DNA from: an uncultured Myxococcales bacterium
GTDB lineage: Bacteria > Myxococcota_A > UBA9160 > UBA4427
Reading direction: 5' to 3'
NCBI GenBank assembly: GCA_965603475.1
Contig: CBFDDD010000001.1
Location: 111,157-175,156 of the forward strand
DNA: 64,000 nt
The position numbers were made by a program, and so were the translations under genes. The notes below the pieces were generated by a model that made no database searches, had not been told where the DNA came from, and saw only the letters and a program-made list of their open reading frames with translations. Shown piece after piece: positions 1 to 39,645 of this stretch (position 1 is its first letter; each line of letters opens with the position of its first letter).

Positions 1-1389
1 CGAGTCGAAACCCTCGATCGCGTACCCGAAATTCTGTCGGCGTTGCCAACAGTCGAGTGTTGCGTCGTCGTTCCCTATTCGGGAGATGGGGGAAGCACGT
101 CGACGGCGACCTCCGATCGCGAGCAAATGACAATCGGTGAACGATCGGTCGACGTCGTTCATTGGATGGAAATCGTTCGGGCAAGCGATGAACCGAGGCT
201 CGAATTCGAGCGCCTTCCGATGAATCATCCGCTCTTCATCCTCTACTCCTCCGGCACGACCGGGAAACCCAAATGCATCGTGCACGGAGCGGGTGGAACC
301 CTGCTCCAGCATTTGAAGGAACATCGCCTGCACGTCGATCTCCGCGAGAACGATCGGTTCTTCTATTTCACGACCTGTGGATGGATGATGTGGAACTGGC
401 TCGTGTCGGGACTCGCGACCGGCGCGACTTTGGTTCTCTACGATGGATCGCCTTTTCATCCGGACGCCAGGCGACTCTGGGAACTCGCAAGTCGAGAACG
501 GGTCAACGTCTTCGGGATCTCGGCCAAATTCATCGATAGCGCGGCCAAGGCGGGCGTGTCGCCGCGTCGGGAGTTCGACCTCTCCTCGCTTCGTGCGATT
601 CTTTCGACGGGATCACCGTTGTCGCAGGATGGTTTCGATTATATCTATCGAGAGGTCGCATCGGACGTCCATCTCGCTTCGATTTCGGGGGGCACCGATA
701 TCGTGTCTTGCTTCGTGCTGGGGAGCCCGACGCTCCCCGTGCGACGAGGTGAGATCCAGTGCGCCGGGCTCGGCATGCAGGTCGAAGTCTTCGATGACCA
801 GGGTCATGCTCTCGTCGGGACACCGGGCGAACTCGTCTGCACGCGCCCCTTCCCGTCCATGCCGATCGGGTTCTGGAATGACCCGGGCGGAGCCCGCTAC
901 CGCGCGGCCTATTTCGAGCGCTTTCCCGGGGTCTGGTGTCACGGTGATTGGTGTCTCGCGACCGATTCAGGCGGATTCGTCATCCATGGGCGTTCAGATG
1001 CCGTCTTGAATCCGGGCGGTGTGCGCATCGGGACCGCGGAGATCTATTCGCAAGTCGAAGCCTTCGACGAGATCCTCGAGGCGATTGCGATTGGCCAGTC
1101 GTGGGAAGACGATGTCCGGGTCGTGCTTTTCGTTAAAATGACAGCCGGGTCGATTCTCGACGACGCCCTTCGCACGAAACTTCGCAGCCGAATAAGGAAG
1201 AACGCGTCGCCCCGGCACGTGCCCGCACGCATCGTCGAAGTCGTGGATATTCCACGTACCCGAAGTGGGAAGATCACAGAACTCGCCGTCCGTGACGTCG
1301 TGCATGGTCGTGAAGTCAAGAACGTCGAAGCGCTCTCGAATCCCGAAGCGCTCGAGTATTTCAGAGATCACGAGGAACTTCAAATCTGA
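1..1389 (+). CDS. acetoacetyl-CoA synthetase (acetoacetate-CoA ligase), 5' end cut by window edge
   Basis: Frame 1 is open from nt 1 into track ORF 43..1389. AMP-binding motif [15 protein letters not shown]-terminal [16 protein letters not shown] is typical of AACS-type acyl-CoA synthetases. Confidence 0.85.
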
Positions 1390-1486
1390 AACTGCGGGAA
1401 AGGCTTGCGGCGGCGGATCCTTCTGGAGGGAAAATGCGGAATCAAAGTCGAAATCAGCGCACGCTTTCGATCCCGGGCGTCGGGTG

Positions 1487-2707
1487 ATGGAAGAATTCAT
1501 CCGGGTCCAGAGCGTCGAGGCGATGGATATGCTCGCGTTGAGCGTCGTCGTGCTCTTTCTCGGCATGTATTTGAATCGTCGGTTCCGTTTTCTTTCGGAG
1601 AATTATATTCCGCCCGCAGTCACGGGCGGCTTGATCTTTTCGGTTGCGACCTGGTTGGTGTATGACCAACTCAGCATTCAGCTCGAATTCGACATGAGAA
1701 TCCGAGATCTTCTGCTGTTGGTCTTCTTCAGTACGGTGGGGCTTTCAGCAAGAGTCAAGACAGTCGTTGCGGGCGGAAAGTCGTTGGCCATTCTGGTCGG
1801 CGTAGCCGCGGTGTTCCTCGTGCTTCAGAACACGGTCGGTGTTGCAATTGCCCTGATGAGGGGGGCGCACCCGGCTTACGGGTTGCTCGCAGGGAGCATT
1901 TCCTTCGCGGGAGGACATGGCACGGCCATCGCGTGGGGTGCTGTTGCCGAAGAGGCCGGCTTCGCGCGTGCGGGCGAAATAGGGTTGGCCTTTGCAACAT
2001 TTGGGCTCGTGGCGGGAGGGCTCGTCGGCGGCCCGATTGCTCGTCGGCTCATGCGATCGGGTGGCCTCGAGGGCTCAGTCGAAGAAGTGTATAAAGACGG
2101 ACCGAAGATCGCGAAGGAACTCGCCGATCCGACCGAGTGGATCTATCCGGTCCTGGTCACATTGCTGGCCCTTGCACTGTGTGTGAGCTTGGGTGACCTG
2201 GTGAATCGCTATCTATTCATGCGGGATGTGCGGCTGCCAGGCTTTCTCACAGCCATGTTCGTTGGCATTCTCGTCACCAACTTTGCTGACACGATTCGAC
2301 GACCGCTCGCTCATGCCACGATCGATCGTTTCGGCGAGGTCAGCCTGCATATCTTTCTGGCGATGAGCATGATGGCGATCGAGCTGTGGGCGCTCGACGA
2401 CATGGCGAGCGTGATCATGATCGTGCTCGTGGCTCAGGTTCTTCTGATGACGGTCTTCGCCGTATTTGTCGTCTACCGGTTCATGGGTCGCAACTACGAC
2501 GCGGTCGTCATTGCGGCGGGCTTTGTCGGGATGGGGCTGGGCGCAACACCCGTCGCGATCGCGAATATGAATGCAGTCACCCACCGCTACGGACCTTCGA
2601 CGAAGGCCTTCCTCGTCGTTCCTTTGGTGGGCGCCTTTTTCATCGATATTCTCAATGCCGGAACGATCAACTTTTTCATCGATGTGATCAGGAACTACTT
2701 GGTCTGA
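1487..2707 (+). CDS. gltS: sodium/glutamate symporter GltS
   Basis: Polytopic membrane protein. N-terminus LALSVVVLFLGMYLNRRFRFLSENYIPPAVTGGL parallels E. coli GltS. The upstream part of ORF 1265..2707 overlaps the AACS tail. Start is ATG 1487, or alternatively 1523. Confidence 0.8.
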   Translation: MEEFIRVQSVEAMDMLALSVVVLFLGMYLNRRFRFLSENYIPPAVTGGLIFSVATWLVYDQLSIQLEFDMRIRDLLLLVFFSTVGLSARVKTVVAGGKSLAILVGVAAVFLVLQNTVGVAIALMRGAHPAYGLLAGSISFAGGHGTAIAWGAVAEEAGFARAGEIGLAFATFGLVAGGLVGGPIARRLMRSGGLEGSVEEVYKDGPKIAKELADPTEWIYPVLVTLLALALCVSLGDLVNRYLFMRDVRLPGFLTAMFVGILVTNFADTIRRPLAHATIDRFGEVSLHIFLAMSMMAIELWALDDMASVIMIVLVAQVLLMTVFAVFVVYRFMGRNYDAVVIAAGFVGMGLGATPVAIANMNAVTHRYGPSTKAFLVVPLVGAFFIDILNAGTINFFIDVIRNYLV

Positions 2708-2757: not shown

Positions 2758-3741
2758 TTACACGAAGTGCGGTAGGACGCGCTCTGTAAACATTTCGAAC
2801 GATTTGTCGCTGAGTGGGGAGAGAAGCAGATAGTCGAGCGGGACCTCCTCTTCGAGGTGCTGAAGAATATCGACGACGCGCTCTGGACTGCCATGGATGA
2901 TGACGTCATCCATATAGTGTTCGACGTGATCGGGGATCTTGTCGTCCGAACGAAAACTGGCCAACGCTTGCTTCGGAATGTAGCCCGCGGTCCATTTCGC
3001 ACCGCGCTCCGCGATCGCTGCTGCCTGGGCATCGGTTTCCGCGACGGCAACGAGTCTTGCGGTCGGGATGTCGCGCGGCCCGAGGTCGTGTCCCGCCTTC
3101 TCGAGACCGGCCCGGTAGTGGCCCAGCTTTTGTGCGATGTCGGAATGGGCCGAATGCGGATCCATCAAGATCGAGAAGCCGCGGCTGGCCGCCCACTCGA
3201 TCGCACCGAGCGAACTTGCGGCCACCCAGGCCGGAGGGTGGGGGCGTTGACGTGGCTTCGGAAGGACTTCGACGTCCTTGTAGCTGTGGAACTCGCCTTC
3301 GAATGTGAGGCGCTCGTTCGACCAGGCCGCCAGTACGATTTCGACGGCTTCGCGGAAGCGCGCGGTACTCTCGTCTGGCGACACACCGAAGACGGACATC
3401 TCCGTCGGATCGAAGCCTCGTCCAGCGCCCCAGTTGACCCGGCCGTCGGTCAGGACGTCCAGCAAAGCAACCTCTTCGGCGATGCGGAGTGGATGGTAGA
3501 ACGCCGCGAGTGTGACCGCGGTGCCGATTCGTAGCCGCTCGGTTCGAGAGGCGATATGCATGGCCATCAGATGCACGGAGGGGCAGACGCTGTAGCTGCT
3601 GAAATGATGCTCGGCCAACCAGACGGCGTCGTAACCCGTTTTATCCATGACCTCGATCCGGTTGAGCGCGCGGGTGTAGACGTCTTCGAGCGGGATGCTC
3701 CGATCTCGCCAACCAAAGAATTGAAGCAAGCCGATTTTCAT
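2758..3741 (-). CDS. LLM-class (luciferase-like) flavin-dependent oxidoreductase
   Basis: MKIGLLQFF...GYDAVWLAEHHFSSYSVCPS...RLRIGTAVTL is the family signature. GGAGGAGG RBS upstream of ATG 3741. Confidence 0.85.
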   Translation of the reverse strand: MKIGLLQFFGWRDRSIPLEDVYTRALNRIEVMDKTGYDAVWLAEHHFSSYSVCPSVHLMAMHIASRTERLRIGTAVTLAAFYHPLRIAEEVALLDVLTDGRVNWGAGRGFDPTEMSVFGVSPDESTARFREAVEIVLAAWSNERLTFEGEFHSYKDVEVLPKPRQRPHPPAWVAASSLGAIEWAASRGFSILMDPHSAHSDIAQKLGHYRAGLEKAGHDLGPRDIPTARLVAVAETDAQAAAIAERGAKWTAGYIPKQALASFRSDDKIPDHVEHYMDDVIIHGSPERVVDILQHLEEEVPLDYLLLSPLSDKSFEMFTERVLPHFV

Positions 3742-34250: not shown

Positions 34251-34886
34251 TCAGAGCAGCAACGCAACGAGTTCGCTCGGGGCATTTGCGAAGCGATTGG
34301 CTCCTGCCTGCGTCAGTTCTTCTGAGGATCCGTAGCCATAGAGCACTCCAATGGCAGAGACTCCATTGTCTAGAGCCCCGATGATGTCATGCTTTCTGTC
34401 GCCGACCATGGTCGCGTCGCCCGCGTCGATCTGAGTTTCTGAAAGCGCGTATCGAAGCAGTTCCGACTTGTTTGTCCGGGTACCGTTCAGCTCCGAGCCG
34501 AAGACGTCGCTGAAATAGTCGATCAGATCGAAATGCTCGAGGATCTGGCGGACATAGATCTGCGGCTTGCTCGAGGCGACGCAGAGCCGAACGCCCGCAC
34601 TCCGTATCGTCGAAAGCGCATCATTGATCCCGGAGTAGGGCGTGTTTTCGTAGAGACCGACGCTCGAGAAACGCTCGCGGTAGTGAGCGACGGCCGCCTG
34701 CGCTCGATCGTGGCCGACCAGCGTCTGGAAATTTTCGAGCAGCGGCGGGCCGATACACCAGAGCAGGTCATTGGCTTCAGGTACGTCCACGCCGAGCCTT
34801 TCCAGCGCAAACTGAATCGAGCCCGTGATGCCGACCATCGGGTCGGTCAGCGTACCGTCGAGATCGAAGAAGATGGTCCGGCTCAT
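34251..34886 (-). CDS. HAD-family hydrolase (phosphoglycolate phosphatase-like)
   Basis: Motif I IFFDLDGTLTD. Motif IV MVGDRKHDI. Confidence 0.85.
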   Translation of the reverse strand: MSRTIFFDLDGTLTDPMVGITGSIQFALERLGVDVPEANDLLWCIGPPLLENFQTLVGHDRAQAAVAHYRERFSSVGLYENTPYSGINDALSTIRSAGVRLCVASSKPQIYVRQILEHFDLIDYFSDVFGSELNGTRTNKSELLRYALSETQIDAGDATMVGDRKHDIIGALDNGVSAIGVLYGYGSSEELTQAGANRFANAPSELVALLL

Positions 34887-35057
34887 GCCCAGAGTCTTAG
34901 CGCTGATTGGCCAGAATGGGGTGGGCGTTGGTCTCCGGGGTGGAATCGCCGGGGCCGTCGGGATGTCGTACGCTGGCTATCTGGTCGAAGTCGAATATTG
35001 GGCTCGCGAAACCAGGCGAATGGGGCGAAGGACGGCACAAGGGCGGAGGAAGAGGAA

Positions 35058-35960
35058 ATGGCGGCAGCGACGAACGCACAGGGGCTCGATGTCATGCGGC
35101 TCTCGGGTTCCCTGGGAGCCGAGGTCCGGGGGATTTCTCTCGAGAAAGCGGGACCGGAAGATGCGAATCGAATCCGCTCGCTCCTGATGGATCACCAGGT
35201 TCTCTTTTTTCCTGATCAGCATCTCACGCCGGATACGCACATTGCGTTCGGCGAGCTCTTTGGTGAACTCGAGGCGCATCCGAATCTGGAGCTCGGTGGG
35301 GAGCGTCCCGAGTTTTTCGAGTTGCACGCCTCTGGTGGCAAGGGCGCGATCGCGGACGAATGGCACAGCGATCTCACCTGCCAGGAGAGTCCCTCGGTCT
35401 TCGCGATTCTGCACATGGTGAAGTGTCCGCCGGTCGGTGGAGACACGATGTGGTCGAATATGTACAAGGCCTACGACGAGCTGACGCCGCCGATGCAGGA
35501 GTTCTGTGAAGGATTGAGTGCACTTCACGATGCCCACCCGCATGACCATCCCGAAAGGATGGCTGTCCACCCGGTGGTTCGGGTTCATCCGGAGACGGGG
35601 CGCAAATCCCTCTTCGTGAACGAACATTTTACGAGGCGCATCGTCGAGCTGAGCCATGAGGAGAGTGAGGCGCTGCTCCGATTTTTGACCGGCTGGGCGA
35701 CGAACGCCCGTTTTGCAATGCGCTATCGATGGTCTGAAGGCACGATCGCGATGTGGGACAACCGCTGTACCCAGCACTGCGTCCTCAATGATTTCGAGGG
35801 AGAGCGAGTCATCCAGCGTGTGACGGTGATGGGGGATTTGCCCGAGCCGGCAGCGGCGCCGCGTTGGGAACCCTGCATTCAACCGGTCAGTGCGGCGAGC
35901 CGCCACGACCGGCAGTTGAAGGCCTATCTCAAGAGTGTTGGTGGTCGTAATCGGACTTGA
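35058..35960 (+). CDS. TauD/TfdA-family Fe(II)/2OG dioxygenase
   Basis: ATG 35058 with GGAGGAAGAGG RBS. WHSDLTCQESPS (HxD). C-terminal WDNRCTQH. Confidence 0.85.
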   Translation: MAAATNAQGLDVMRLSGSLGAEVRGISLEKAGPEDANRIRSLLMDHQVLFFPDQHLTPDTHIAFGELFGELEAHPNLELGGERPEFFELHASGGKGAIADEWHSDLTCQESPSVFAILHMVKCPPVGGDTMWSNMYKAYDELTPPMQEFCEGLSALHDAHPHDHPERMAVHPVVRVHPETGRKSLFVNEHFTRRIVELSHEESEALLRFLTGWATNARFAMRYRWSEGTIAMWDNRCTQHCVLNDFEGERVIQRVTVMGDLPEPAAAPRWEPCIQPVSAASRHDRQLKAYLKSVGGRNRT

Positions 35961-35998: not shown

Positions 35999-36475
35999 AT
36001 GACACCCGACAGCCTCTTCATGATCTGTAACAACGGTGTGCTGCCGGCCTGGCTCCTGCTCGCGTTTGCGCCCTCGTGGTCATGGACCCAGCGTATCGTC
36101 CATCAGATCTGGATTCCGATCCTGCTGGGATGCGTCTACCTCGGCGTGCTCTTGACGAGCCCCGAGGCACCCGAGGGCGGCGGGTTCTCGAGCCTCCGCG
36201 GCGTCATGACGTCGTTCACGAGCCCCCATTTTGCCCTCGTGGGTTGGGTCCACTACCTCGCTTTCGACCTTTTTGTCGGCGCATGGGAAGTACGCGACGC
36301 GCAGCGCCGATCGATCTCCCATTTATTGGTCGTACCCTGCCTCTTGCTGACCCTGATGCTAGGCCCGGTCGGGCTACTCGCTTACCTCGGCCTTCGCTTC
36401 GGACTGAAGCGTGAAGTCTCTCTGGATGAATCGACACGATCGACAGAGGGAGATGCCAGCCATGGAAGTGAGTGA
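35999..36475 (+). CDS. ABA4-like/DUF4281 membrane protein
   Basis: AAGGAG RBS before ATG 35999. LPAWLLLAFAPSW... and HYLAFDLFVG motifs as I recall them for DUF4281. Confidence 0.6.
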   Translation: MTPDSLFMICNNGVLPAWLLLAFAPSWSWTQRIVHQIWIPILLGCVYLGVLLTSPEAPEGGGFSSLRGVMTSFTSPHFALVGWVHYLAFDLFVGAWEVRDAQRRSISHLLVVPCLLLTLMLGPVGLLAYLGLRFGLKREVSLDESTRSTEGDASHGSE

Positions 36476-37013
36476 GGAAATCGGCCCCAAGGAAGCCAGG
36501 TTCATCGATGCGCAGCGGATGTTTTTCGTTGGGACGGCACCGCTTTCGGCGGAGGGACATGTCAATGTCTCGCCGAAGGGCTATGCGAGCTTTGCGCGGC
36601 TCGGAGTTCGGCGAGTCGCCTATGTCGACCTGGGTGGAAGCGGGATCGAGACCCACGCCCATCTGCGCGAGAACGGTCGCATCTGTCTGATGTTTTGCGC
36701 TTTCGAGGGTGATCCCCTCATTCTGCGGCTCTACGGCGAAGGGCGCGCCTATCAATACGGCACGCCGGAATTCGAAGCCCTGCGCGGTCATTTCCCCGAG
36801 ATCGATGTACCTGTTCGCGGCATCATCGACGTCTCATTGACACGTGTCCAGCGTTCGTGCGGTTGGGCCGTTCCCAACTACGAATATGCGGGTGACCGCG
36901 ATGTCTTGCGGAAACACAACGCCAAGAGAACACAGGCCGAGTTCATGGCGCGGCGCATCGAGTCGAATGCTTCCAGCATCGATGGCCTGCCCGGACTCGA
37001 ATCTTCGGATTAA
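36462..37013 (+). CDS. pyridoxamine 5'-phosphate oxidase family protein
   Basis: FIDAQRMFFVGTAPLSAEGHVNVSPKG pattern. Overlaps the previous gene by 14 nt. Confidence 0.75.
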   Translation: MEVSEEIGPKEARFIDAQRMFFVGTAPLSAEGHVNVSPKGYASFARLGVRRVAYVDLGGSGIETHAHLRENGRICLMFCAFEGDPLILRLYGEGRAYQYGTPEFEALRGHFPEIDVPVRGIIDVSLTRVQRSCGWAVPNYEYAGDRDVLRKHNAKRTQAEFMARRIESNASSIDGLPGLESSD

Positions 37014-37038: not shown

Positions 37039-37254
37039 TCAGCCGAGCTGATTCAAGATTTCCGAATCTTCGGGGAAGCGGCCTTCGTCATGTTTCGAGA
37101 AGATGAGCTTTCCATCCACCTCGACGTCAAAAATTCCACCTCGACCAGCGATTAGCTCGGGCGTGATTTCGTGTTTCTGCTGGATCTTGGCCGCCAGACT
37201 GGCGGCCCGGGGTTTGAAGTTTCAACTCGCGCAGTATGTAATTCGGATGAGCAT
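37039..37254 (-). CDS. SelW/Rdx-family selenoprotein (71 aa, Sec at codon 11, CxxU)
   Basis: Absent from the ORF track because it is split by TGA 37222-37224. GGGAGG RBS before ATG 37254. Reads MLIRITYCAS-U-NFKPRAASLAAKIQQKHEITPELIAGRGGIFDVEVDGKLIFSKHDEGRFPEDSEILNQLG. CxxU sits at the family redox motif and the C-terminal G.GG.F.V...G.LIFSK...G.FP pattern is present. Confidence 0.8.
37189..37207 (-). promoter_or_regulatory. putative bacterial SECIS hairpin for the SelW-like gene
   Basis: Minus strand GGCCGCC-AGUCU-GGCGGCC: 7-bp stem, GU in the loop, starting 14 nt after the UGA. Confidence 0.6.
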
Positions 37255-37299
37255 TTTTTCCTCCCGAGCCGGATCCTAGTTGAAGCGATCCCCTCAACC

Positions 37300-38625
37300 T
37301 TATCCCTCGTCGACGCCCTTGGGCGCTTGCTGCTTCATGAATCCGAACATGTAGCCCGCCACACGACGCATCTGGATTTCTTCCGCGCCCTCTGTGATGC
37401 GATATCGGCGGTGGTGACGGTAGATGTGTTCGAAGGGCTTGTGACGCGAATAGCCGAGCCCCCCGTGGACCTGCATTGCGCGATCCGCCGCGTTACAGCA
37501 GAGCCGATTCGACCAGTAATTACACATCGAGACCTTGTCCGAGACCGAGAATGCGCCGTACTCGTCCATCATCCAGGCCGTCTTGTGAATTAGAGCGCGC
37601 AACATTTCACACTGGGTCTGTAGCTCGACGAGTGGGAATTGAATGGCCTGATTGGTGGCCAATGGTTTGCCAAAGGGCTTGCGAACCTGGGCATACTCGA
37701 CAGACTGATCGATGCAGAACTGGGCGGCACCGAGGCTCGAGGCCGCCTGGCGGATTCGGTTTTCGTTGAAGAAGTGCTGCACGACGGCAAGCCCCCGGCC
37801 TTCGCCGCCGAAGATCGCGTCGTCCGGGACCACGACGTCGGTGAACGACACCCGGCCGTGGTCCGTTGGCATGTTGAAGGTCCAGAGCATTTCTTCGATC
37901 TTTACGCCCGGCGCATCCATCGGTACCAGGAAGGCCGTGATTCCTCGGCCATCGCCCGCCTTACCACTCGTTCGAGCCATGACCATGTCGTACTTGGCCT
38001 TGTGGATCCCGGTATTCCAGGTTTTCTCGCCGTTGATGCGCCAGCTGTCGCCCTCGCGTACAGCGACCGTCTCCATATGTGTGGCATCGGAGCCATGCTC
38101 GGGTTCGGTGATTCCGAAGGCAAAGCCGCGCTGGCCTGTTGCCATGGCGTCGACCCATTCGGCCTGTTGGGCCTCGGTCCCGTACTCGAGCATCAACAGC
38201 AGGCCCACGTTGTTGCCTACGATCGAATGTTCGTTCTGGAGGTCATTGTGAAGTCCGAGGCCGCGACGTGCCAGATGCTCGCGAATGATCGCCATGCCGA
38301 GGTTGTTCCCATCGCGTCCGCCGTATTTCTTGGCGAGGGGATAGCGAAAATGTCCGGCCGCATCGGCAAGTCGTCGCGCCTCCGCAAGGAGCGCCTCCCA
38401 TACTTCGTTGGGAAGCCCGCCTCGCTCCCAATCGGTGCGCGCATCTTCGCGGCGATGATCGAAGAAGCGGATATTGTCGTCCTGTTGTTCGAGGGGCAGG
38501 ATTTCACGCTCGATAAAGGCATCGAGTTCATCGAGGTAGGCTGCGAGGTCTTTGGGGATGTCGAAATTCAAGGGGATGTCCTTCTGGTTGACGGGCTTCC
38601 GGGTGGTGGAATCGGCGTTAGGCAT
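37300..38625 (-). CDS. acyl-CoA dehydrogenase family protein
   Basis: 441 aa ACAD fold. Catalytic context RITEGAEEIQ. Confidence 0.9.
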   Translation of the reverse strand: MPNADSTTRKPVNQKDIPLNFDIPKDLAAYLDELDAFIEREILPLEQQDDNIRFFDHRREDARTDWERGGLPNEVWEALLAEARRLADAAGHFRYPLAKKYGGRDGNNLGMAIIREHLARRGLGLHNDLQNEHSIVGNNVGLLLMLEYGTEAQQAEWVDAMATGQRGFAFGITEPEHGSDATHMETVAVREGDSWRINGEKTWNTGIHKAKYDMVMARTSGKAGDGRGITAFLVPMDAPGVKIEEMLWTFNMPTDHGRVSFTDVVVPDDAIFGGEGRGLAVVQHFFNENRIRQAASSLGAAQFCIDQSVEYAQVRKPFGKPLATNQAIQFPLVELQTQCEMLRALIHKTAWMMDEYGAFSVSDKVSMCNYWSNRLCCNAADRAMQVHGGLGYSRHKPFEHIYRHHRRYRITEGAEEIQMRRVAGYMFGFMKQQAPKGVDEG

Positions 38626-38742: not shown

Positions 38743-39645
38743 ATGCCCGATTCACCGATTACGCACCGCAGCTTCGTTTCCTACATCGATCGTACCCGTG
38801 AGTACTATGCAGCACAGGGCTACGAAAGGCCCTACCGCTGGGCACACCATGCGTCCGTTCCCTTTGCGAAACTCGAGAAACCCCTCGCCGAGTCGCGTGT
38901 CGCGGTCGTCACGACCGCGAGCCCATTCGTCGATCCGGCTGCGCGCGAAGATGTCGTCGGCGACGGCAAGCAGGTCTGGTCGGGTGAAACCGCCGTCACA
39001 CCGGATCGGCTCTACACCGATGATCTCGCATGGGACAAGGAAACCACACACACCAACGACGTAGAATCCTTCGTTCCGCTCGGTTCTCTGCGCGCGTTCG
39101 TCAGGGAGGGTCGCATCGGATCGCTCGCCAAACGCTTCCACGGTGTGCCGACGGACTACAGCCAGCGTCGTACCCTCGAACAAGACGCGCCAGAGATCCT
39201 CGCCCGATGCCGAGAGGACGCGGTCGATATCGCACTGCTCGTCCCGCTCTGACCCGTCTGTCACCAGACCGTGAGTCTGGTCGCACGCGTATTGGAAGAG
39301 AACGGCATCCCGACCGTCGTCGTCGGCTCCGCACGCGACATTGTGGAAGAGTGCGGCGTTCCACGTTTCCTCTTCACTGATTTTCCGCTCGGAAACCCGT
39401 GTGGCAAGCCAGACGACGGCATGATGCAGCGCGACATAGTCGGCTACGCGTTCGATCTTCTCGAAACGGCTCGCCTTCCCCGGACGACCGTACAGACACC
39501 GTTCATCTGGGGGGAAGACGCTTCATGGAAGGAACGTTACGCGCGGGTCGACGCGGAGGCTTCTGAGCGCCTTCGCCAGGCCGGCAATGCGAGGCGCGTT
39601 GAGCAGGAACACGCGAAAGCGACAGGCCGCGCCCGATCGACGTAG
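38743..39645 (+). CDS. glycine/sarcosine/betaine/D-proline reductase selenoprotein B (GRDB) family protein, Sec at codon 170
   Basis: AGGAGG RBS before ATG 38743. The tail of track ORF 37639..39252 and ORF 39271..39645 share a frame and are joined by TGA 39250-39252. Reads ...DAVDIALLVPL-U-PVCHQTVSLVARVLEENGIPTVVVG...FPLGNPCGKP, collinear with the GrdB Sec region. Confidence 0.8.
39263..39281 (+). promoter_or_regulatory. putative bacterial SECIS hairpin for the GrdB-like gene
   Basis: ACCAGAC-CGUGA-GUCUGGU: 7-bp stem, GU in the loop, starting 10 nt after the UGA. Confidence 0.6.

Follow-up and report, generated by a model that had tools for sequence, protein, structure and literature searches.

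Among prokaryotic selenoprotein families, the SelW-like one is the most abundant in the Sargasso Sea, with 48 genes described (PMC1088965), and its members hold the same rank in the GOS data, which contain 427 SelW-like selenoprotein genes and 56 Cys homologues (PMC2398784). They have also been catalogued across sequenced bacterial genomes (PMC1794560), and for the bacterial members a role in redox reactions and binding to glutathione have been proposed (PMC1088965). In bacteria, the hallmark of the SECIS element is a small apical loop that contains a G (PMC1088965). In the fdhF mRNA of E. coli, G23 and U24 are the conserved bases of the apical loop, and G23 contacts SelB (PMC8659212).

The locus described here is a 286-bp gap between two open reading frames in a 64-kb stretch of DNA (positions 1-64000, hereafter the window). 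We are highly confident that this gap contains a real gene, overlooked by ORF finders, which encodes a SelW-like selenoprotein of the Rdx family with 71 residues. The locus carries a conserved Rdx gene with a UGA at the redox position, followed by a structured element that is under selection at the RNA level, and the in-frame UGA very likely encodes selenocysteine.

Position, frame and family of the SelW-like gene

The SelW-like gene lies on the minus strand at 37039..37254, within the gap that extends from the end of a PNPOx-like ORF (37013) to the stop of an acyl-CoA dehydrogenase (ACAD) gene (37300), and which an earlier sequence-only reading had counted as 285 bp, one short of its actual length. 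Minus-strand translation starts with the ATG at 37254-37252, preceded by a Shine-Dalgarno-like GGGAGG that can be read from the sequence at 37260..37265 (minus strand) with a 5-nt spacer to the start codon. The frame runs MLIRITYCAS-TGA(37224-37222)-NFKPRAASLAAKIQQKHEITPELIAGRGGIFDVEVDGKLIFSKHDEGRFPEDSEILNQLG and ends at the terminal TGA stop at 37041-37039, which gives 71 codons when the UGA is counted, 60 of them sense codons downstream of it. The start codon, the ribosome binding site and the 71-codon frame interrupted by UGA had all been proposed from the sequence alone, and both the sequence and its translation bear them out. The gap had likewise been described as empty in the ORF track, and the ORF list (at least 40 aa) indeed has no entry in the SelW-like frame; none of the competing ORFs within the gap, whichever their strand, matches a Pfam family. 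Base composition around the gene is unremarkable and the GC content is flat. ATG 37254 is supported as the start, because the equivalent codon, ten codons before the selenocysteine, is ATG, GTG or TTG in 72 of 77 related genes.

The membership of the product in the Rdx (SelW/SelT/SelH) family, which had been proposed from the sequence together with a profile search, is upheld by three models. With selenocysteine entered as cysteine, the product matches Pfam Rdx (PF10262) over residues 3-69 with 68.6 bits (E 5.6e-19; cut-off 22.6 bits), TIGR02174 (CXXU_selWTH) with 59.4 bits (cut-off 34.2) and the equivalog model NF041051, named "SelT/SelW/SelH family (seleno)protein", with 92.6 bits (cut-off 88), and thus passes the curated thresholds of all three. 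The 60 residues after the UGA score 46.4 bits against PF10262 when taken alone, and the addition of the ten codons before the UGA and of the Sec/Cys position itself lifts this score by about 22 bits. The CxxU redox motif (37222..37233, minus strand) consists of Cys8 (TGC, 37233-37231), Ala, Ser and Sec11 (TGA, 37224-37222), and it stands directly after the N-terminal beta-strand in the context ITY-C-A-S-U-NF. Furthermore, eight solved structures of the Rdx family match the product by sequence over residues 3-68, including 2ljk, 2fa8 and 2npb, and in the two printed alignments the CxxC column of MIEN1 (2ljk) and of Atu0228 (2fa8) coincides with C8-x-x-U11. From these matches we infer that the product has the thioredoxin-like fold of the Rdx family.

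Relatives were collected in a genome scan of one genome per species (GTDB representatives), which yielded 457 confirmed relatives, and the best 80 loci were kept for comparison. These best 80 are 51-83% identical to the SelW-like gene of the window, and each of them contains an in-frame [YF]-C-x-x-TGA-[NDH]-[YF], with the TGA always in the CxxU column (80/80); the conservation of the UGA at orthologous loci, a check that the sequence-only reading had named, is therefore complete in this set. The peptide before the UGA, M-x-I-x-I-T-Y-C, is conserved among the same 80 relatives. Their labels cover at least six major lineages, with Planctomycetota, Phycisphaerae, Acidobacteriota/Thermoanaerobaculia, Myxococcota/Deltaproteobacteria, Gammaproteobacteria, Verrucomicrobiales and Spirochaetes among them.

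The hairpin downstream of the UGA

A SECIS-like hairpin is found at 37189..37207 on the minus strand, formed by GGCCGCC (37207-37201), AGUCU and GGCGGCC (37195-37189). It lies inside the coding sequence, where it encodes (R)AASLAA, and its perfect 7-bp stem starts exactly 14 nt after the UGA, just as had been described from the sequence alone; RNAfold extends the stem by an A-U pair to 8 bp, which leaves a GUC loop. The hairpin thus has the form described for bacterial elements, being located just downstream of the UGA and having a small apical loop with a G.

The element resembles the fdhF SECIS of E. coli in that both are hairpins inside the coding sequence, a short distance past the UGA, with G-U in the apical loop. 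The two differ in several details, since the spacing from the UGA to the stem is 14 nt here and 11 nt in fdhF, the 5' arm of the fdhF stem has a bulged U whereas the stem here is perfect, and the loop is 3-5 nt long here (A-GUC-U) while that of fdhF is GGUC. The 11-nt spacing and the bulged U define the fdhF element, but a bacterial SECIS need not have them.

A hairpin of this kind might also have no role in recoding, and could be either a transcription attenuator or a by-product of encoding the palindromic-looking AASLAA in G+C-rich DNA. The alanine codons (GCN) in the two arms are bound to pair at their first and second positions, and the stem pairs at these positions are partly forced by the protein because the stem encodes a conserved A-A-S-L-A-A. 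The evidence from the single sequence is weak as well, since its fold has a z-score of only -1.44 in DNA of 60% GC, and 15 of 200 shuffles fold equally well. The case for a hairpin beyond chance therefore rests on comparison with the relatives.

In that comparison, the hairpin occurs at the same offset from the UGA in all 81 sequences (the window and the best 80 relatives). In the ungapped alignment, 88.7% of the cells of the 8-pair structure are paired, and sliding the 3' partner by 1-3 columns either way lowers this to 20-52%. The covariation score is 0.256, compared with 0.116 ± 0.009 in shuffles, and was reached by none of 500 shuffles. In three of the stem pairs both partners are third codon positions, and two of these three show variation yet stay paired in 99-100% of the sequences, namely the pair of columns 27-39 (CG 55, GC 12, UA 7, GU 4, UG 2, unpaired 1) and that of columns 30-36 (CG 77, UA 2, AU 1, GC 1). 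Pairs 25-41 and 28-38 are disrupted in 20-28 of the 81 sequences, which would fit a by-product of coding, but the covariation at synonymous third positions would not.

The codon usage of the loop (alignment columns 31-35; window 37200-37196) can be compared with that of other serines. Where the loop encodes serine, AGT is used without exception (55 of 55 genes, from several phyla), whereas the same genes use AGT at only 7 of their 206 other serines (~3%) and at 2 of 77 occurrences of the invariant serine of the FSK motif. Where glycine replaces the serine, it is encoded by GGT in 20 of 21 genes. As the loop codon is AGU, or GGU in nearly all glycine cases, the loop G-U is kept at the RNA level, and it is invariant or nearly so across the 81 sequences. 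By virtue of this internal codon control, the loop AGU is the strongest evidence for selection on the RNA, and protein coding cannot account for it. The conservation of the hairpin, which the sequence-only reading had also singled out for checking, thus extends to its place in all relatives, to covariation of its stem and to the loop G-U. Finally, no U-tract follows the stem, so the hairpin is not an intrinsic terminator, which speaks against an attenuator. Altogether, a hairpin without a recoding role is very unlikely, and the preferred reading is that of a bacterial SECIS element.

Gene neighbourhood and a second selenoprotein candidate

The ACAD gene (37300..38625, minus strand, identified by its Pfam match) ends 45 nt before the SelW-like start codon. 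On the minus strand, nothing resembling a promoter or a terminator was found between the two genes, and the SelW-like gene probably shares a transcript with the ACAD gene. On its other side the gap is flanked by the PNPOx-like ORF (36411-37013, plus strand). The start of this ORF is likely over-extended, as it overlaps the ABA4-like ORF by 65 nt and relatives align from residue 18; the same is likely for the start of 34533-35960 (plus strand), a 475-aa ORF in which the TauD match begins at residue 190. No sign of a mobile element was noted in the vicinity of the SelW-like gene. Acyl-CoA and redox metabolism dominate the window as a whole (1-64000), which encodes three acyl-CoA dehydrogenases, a thiolase, an enoyl-CoA hydratase and a family III CoA-transferase. 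Its redox genes include an aldehyde:ferredoxin oxidoreductase, a PQQ dehydrogenase, a sulfite-oxidase-like molybdoenzyme with cytochrome c and a multihaem cytochrome, and a formate-tetrahydrofolate ligase is also encoded.

A second selenoprotein candidate is located 1.5 kb from the SelW-like gene, on the plus strand at 38743-39645. Its frame begins with the Met at 38743, meets an in-frame TGA at 39250-39252 and continues past it to 39645. Around the UGA it reads ...DIALLVPL-U-PVCHQTVSLVARVLEENGIP..., which places the selenocysteine in a UxxC motif (LLVPL-U-PVC). With selenocysteine entered as cysteine, the product matches the D-proline reductase PrdB model TIGR04483 (E 3.3e-24, below the curated cut-off), and it also matches other models of the selenoprotein B family (PrdB/GrdB), all of them below their curated cut-offs, for which reason this candidate is called a distant PrdB-like protein. 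No solved structural relative of it was found by sequence. The UxxC motif is listed for marine PrdB selenoproteins (PMC2398784), and PrdB is prominent in marine data (PMC1088965, PMC2398784). The UGA of the PrdB-like gene is followed by a hairpin of its own, ACCAGAC-CGUGA-GUCUGGU, with G-U in the loop, and both the UGA and the hairpin are kept in the relative L001, which is 76% identical. In ORF lists the gene is split into an artefactual 537-aa ORF and a 124-aa fragment.

A brute-force scan of the window for an in-frame TGA with a redox motif returned about 170 mostly spurious candidates in this DNA of 60% GC, among which only the SelW-like and the PrdB-like genes have support. Within the 64-kb window itself, no tRNA-Sec was found (ARAGORN detected no tRNA at all, and Rfam no family), and Pfam scans detected no selA, selB or selD in the 43 ORFs that they covered. 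The organism is nevertheless very likely to decode selenocysteine, because there are two genes of known selenoprotein families, each with its UGA in the expected place and a hairpin of its own.

The gene order PrdB-like, ACAD, SelW-like, PNPOx-like, ABA4-like and TauD-like is common to the window and to the loci L001 and L002, the ACAD and SelW-like products of which are 75-86% identical to those of the window; the other loci do not have it. The taxonomic labels of the closest syntenic relatives, L001, L002 and L047, are inconsistent (uncultured Spirochaetaceae, Deltaproteobacteria bacterium UBA4427 and Gammaproteobacteria bacterium UBA2965), and the organism of the window is probably a member of a poorly classified lineage known from MAGs only. 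A further locus, L081, is a 4.3-kb ENA metagenome contig that matches the window at ~35.9-40.2 kb; its ACAD and PNPOx-like genes are 100% identical to those of the window, and the sole difference is the UGA column of the PrdB-like query. In the public calls for this contig, an antisense 62-aa ORF (3539-3727, minus strand) lies over the SelW-like gene, and the PrdB-like gene is represented by a 124-aa C-terminal fragment (1049-1423, minus strand) and an antisense 170-aa ORF (1430-1942, plus strand). Both antisense ORFs are spurious, and the contig illustrates how the recoding of UGA misleads automatic annotation at this locus.

When neighbours were clustered over 78 SelW-like loci, no conserved partner emerged, and no true neighbour was present in more than six loci, so that outside the closest relatives the context offers no hint of function. 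One large cluster (29 loci) was discarded, as it consists of the antisense frame of the SelW-like gene itself. The PNPOx-like gene was found only in L001, L002 and L081. The SelW-like protein could conceivably act as a dedicated selenol/thiol redox partner of the PrdB-like UxxC selenoprotein, with the two forming a two-selenoprotein reductase module around the ACAD. For bacterial SelW-like proteins, this would be the first physiological partner to be defined; such an arrangement is unlikely, with linkage of the PrdB-like, ACAD and SelW-like genes seen only in the window, in L081 and in L001 and L002 (75-83% identity), and with no neighbour conserved across the other ~76 loci.

Decoding of the UGA and comparison with known systems

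In the proposed mechanism, an mRNA that is probably common with the upstream acyl-CoA dehydrogenase would be translated from ATG 37254, and the ribosome would reach the UGA at codon 11. The G+C hairpin of 7-8 bp located 14 nt downstream, with its G-U loop, would then serve as the SECIS element. If decoding follows the E. coli model, the loop would be bound by SelB-GTP with its Sec-tRNA(Sec), and selenocysteine would be delivered in place of termination by RF2, so that translation proceeds to the ordinary TGA stop at 37041-37039. From what is known of the family, Cys8-x-x-Sec11 is expected to cycle between the selenolate/thiol and the selenenylsulfide, and the product is probably a small thiol-dependent oxidoreductase with an antioxidant or redox-relay role.

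Public annotation presents a different picture. In a search of 5.8 billion predicted proteins, all homologues retrieved were N-terminally truncated, with 42-61 aa and a start after the position of the UGA, and several of these bear the name "selenoprotein W-related protein" or "SelT/SelW/SelH family protein". Since every database homologue is called in this shortened form, one might suppose that the UGA terminates translation and that the true product is a protein of the database type (~42-61 aa), started downstream of the UGA. In the window, however, no ATG, GTG or TTG follows the UGA in frame until the GTG at Val46, which leaves only about 26 codons, and no ORF of at least 40 aa is listed in this frame. 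The shortened calls are also devoid of beta-strand 1 and of the redox motif, both of which define the family, while the ten upstream codons, the start codon and the ribosome binding site are conserved, and the full-length match stands 22 bits above that of the fragment. A downstream start is thus highly improbable, and the full-length selenoprotein remains the preferred product; the SelW-like gene looks unannotated because gene callers stop at the UGA.

It is just as improbable that the UGA is read as Trp, Gly or Cys, through a reassigned code or leaky read-through and without selenocysteine. The support for Sec machinery in this genome is indirect, which would leave room for such decoding, but the SelW-like gene of the window itself ends in TGA, as do 42 of 76 homologues, and UGA is therefore not generally reassigned but serves as a stop in these genomes. 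Moreover, a position-specific hairpin with a G-U loop is the signature of SelB-dependent recoding, and the UGA column is the Cys/Sec redox position of the Rdx family. Decay of a Cys-form Rdx gene to one without a functional product, for which a one-base change from TGC to TGA would give the same picture and with which the lack of sel genes in the 64-kb window would agree, can practically be dismissed, as the TGA stands in the same column in 80/80 relatives from several phyla that are not assembly copies of one sequence (51-83% identity to the window), the protein sequence is kept on both sides of the UGA with the frame intact to a normal stop, and the downstream RNA element is under selection. 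Incorporation of selenocysteine accordingly stays the favoured reading of the UGA.

With regard to its significance, the value of the locus is mainly one of annotation, as standard ORF callers fail to see a redox gene and, close to it, a second selenoprotein gene. With the annotation corrected, the organism can be regarded as a likely user of selenocysteine, and its selenoproteome gains two entries. In addition, the loop AGU in 55/55 genes and the synonymous covariation of the stem offer a clean textbook case of an RNA signal that constrains a coding sequence.

Among the known systems, mammalian selenoprotein W belongs to the same Rdx family by sequence (mouse protein, 2npb; E 7.5e-4), as does MIEN1/C17orf37 (2ljk; E 3.6e-8), which is a Cys form. 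Eukaryotic SelW depends on a SECIS in the 3'-UTR with SBP2 and eEFSec, in contrast to the element described here, which is part of the coding region. The bacterial Rdx proteins that are Cys forms and have solved structures (Atu0228 2fa8, SAV_2001 3dex, 2oka, 2ojl, 2p0g and 2obk) are homologous over residues 3-68, and the aligned redox motif is YCTQCNW in Atu0228 and YCASUNF in the SelW-like product. These proteins carry CxxC, have ~100-108 residues as solved and need no recoding.

The closest counterparts are the bacterial SelW-like selenoproteins described by Zhang, Gladyshev and colleagues (2005-2008), which have the same small size (~70-80 aa), the CxxU after the first beta-strand, the same GGxFxV...G.LIFSK...GRFP core and the same SECIS hairpin within the coding sequence after the UGA. 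The family, the motif and the type of SECIS have been described since 2005 and a dedicated NCBIfam model exists, hence the SelW-like gene is an ordinary annotation miss in a known family. The window copy is at most 83% identical to any sequence found in the representative genomes, and it shares its ACAD and PrdB-like context only with its closest relatives; nothing of substance separates it from the known bacterial SelW-like selenoproteins.
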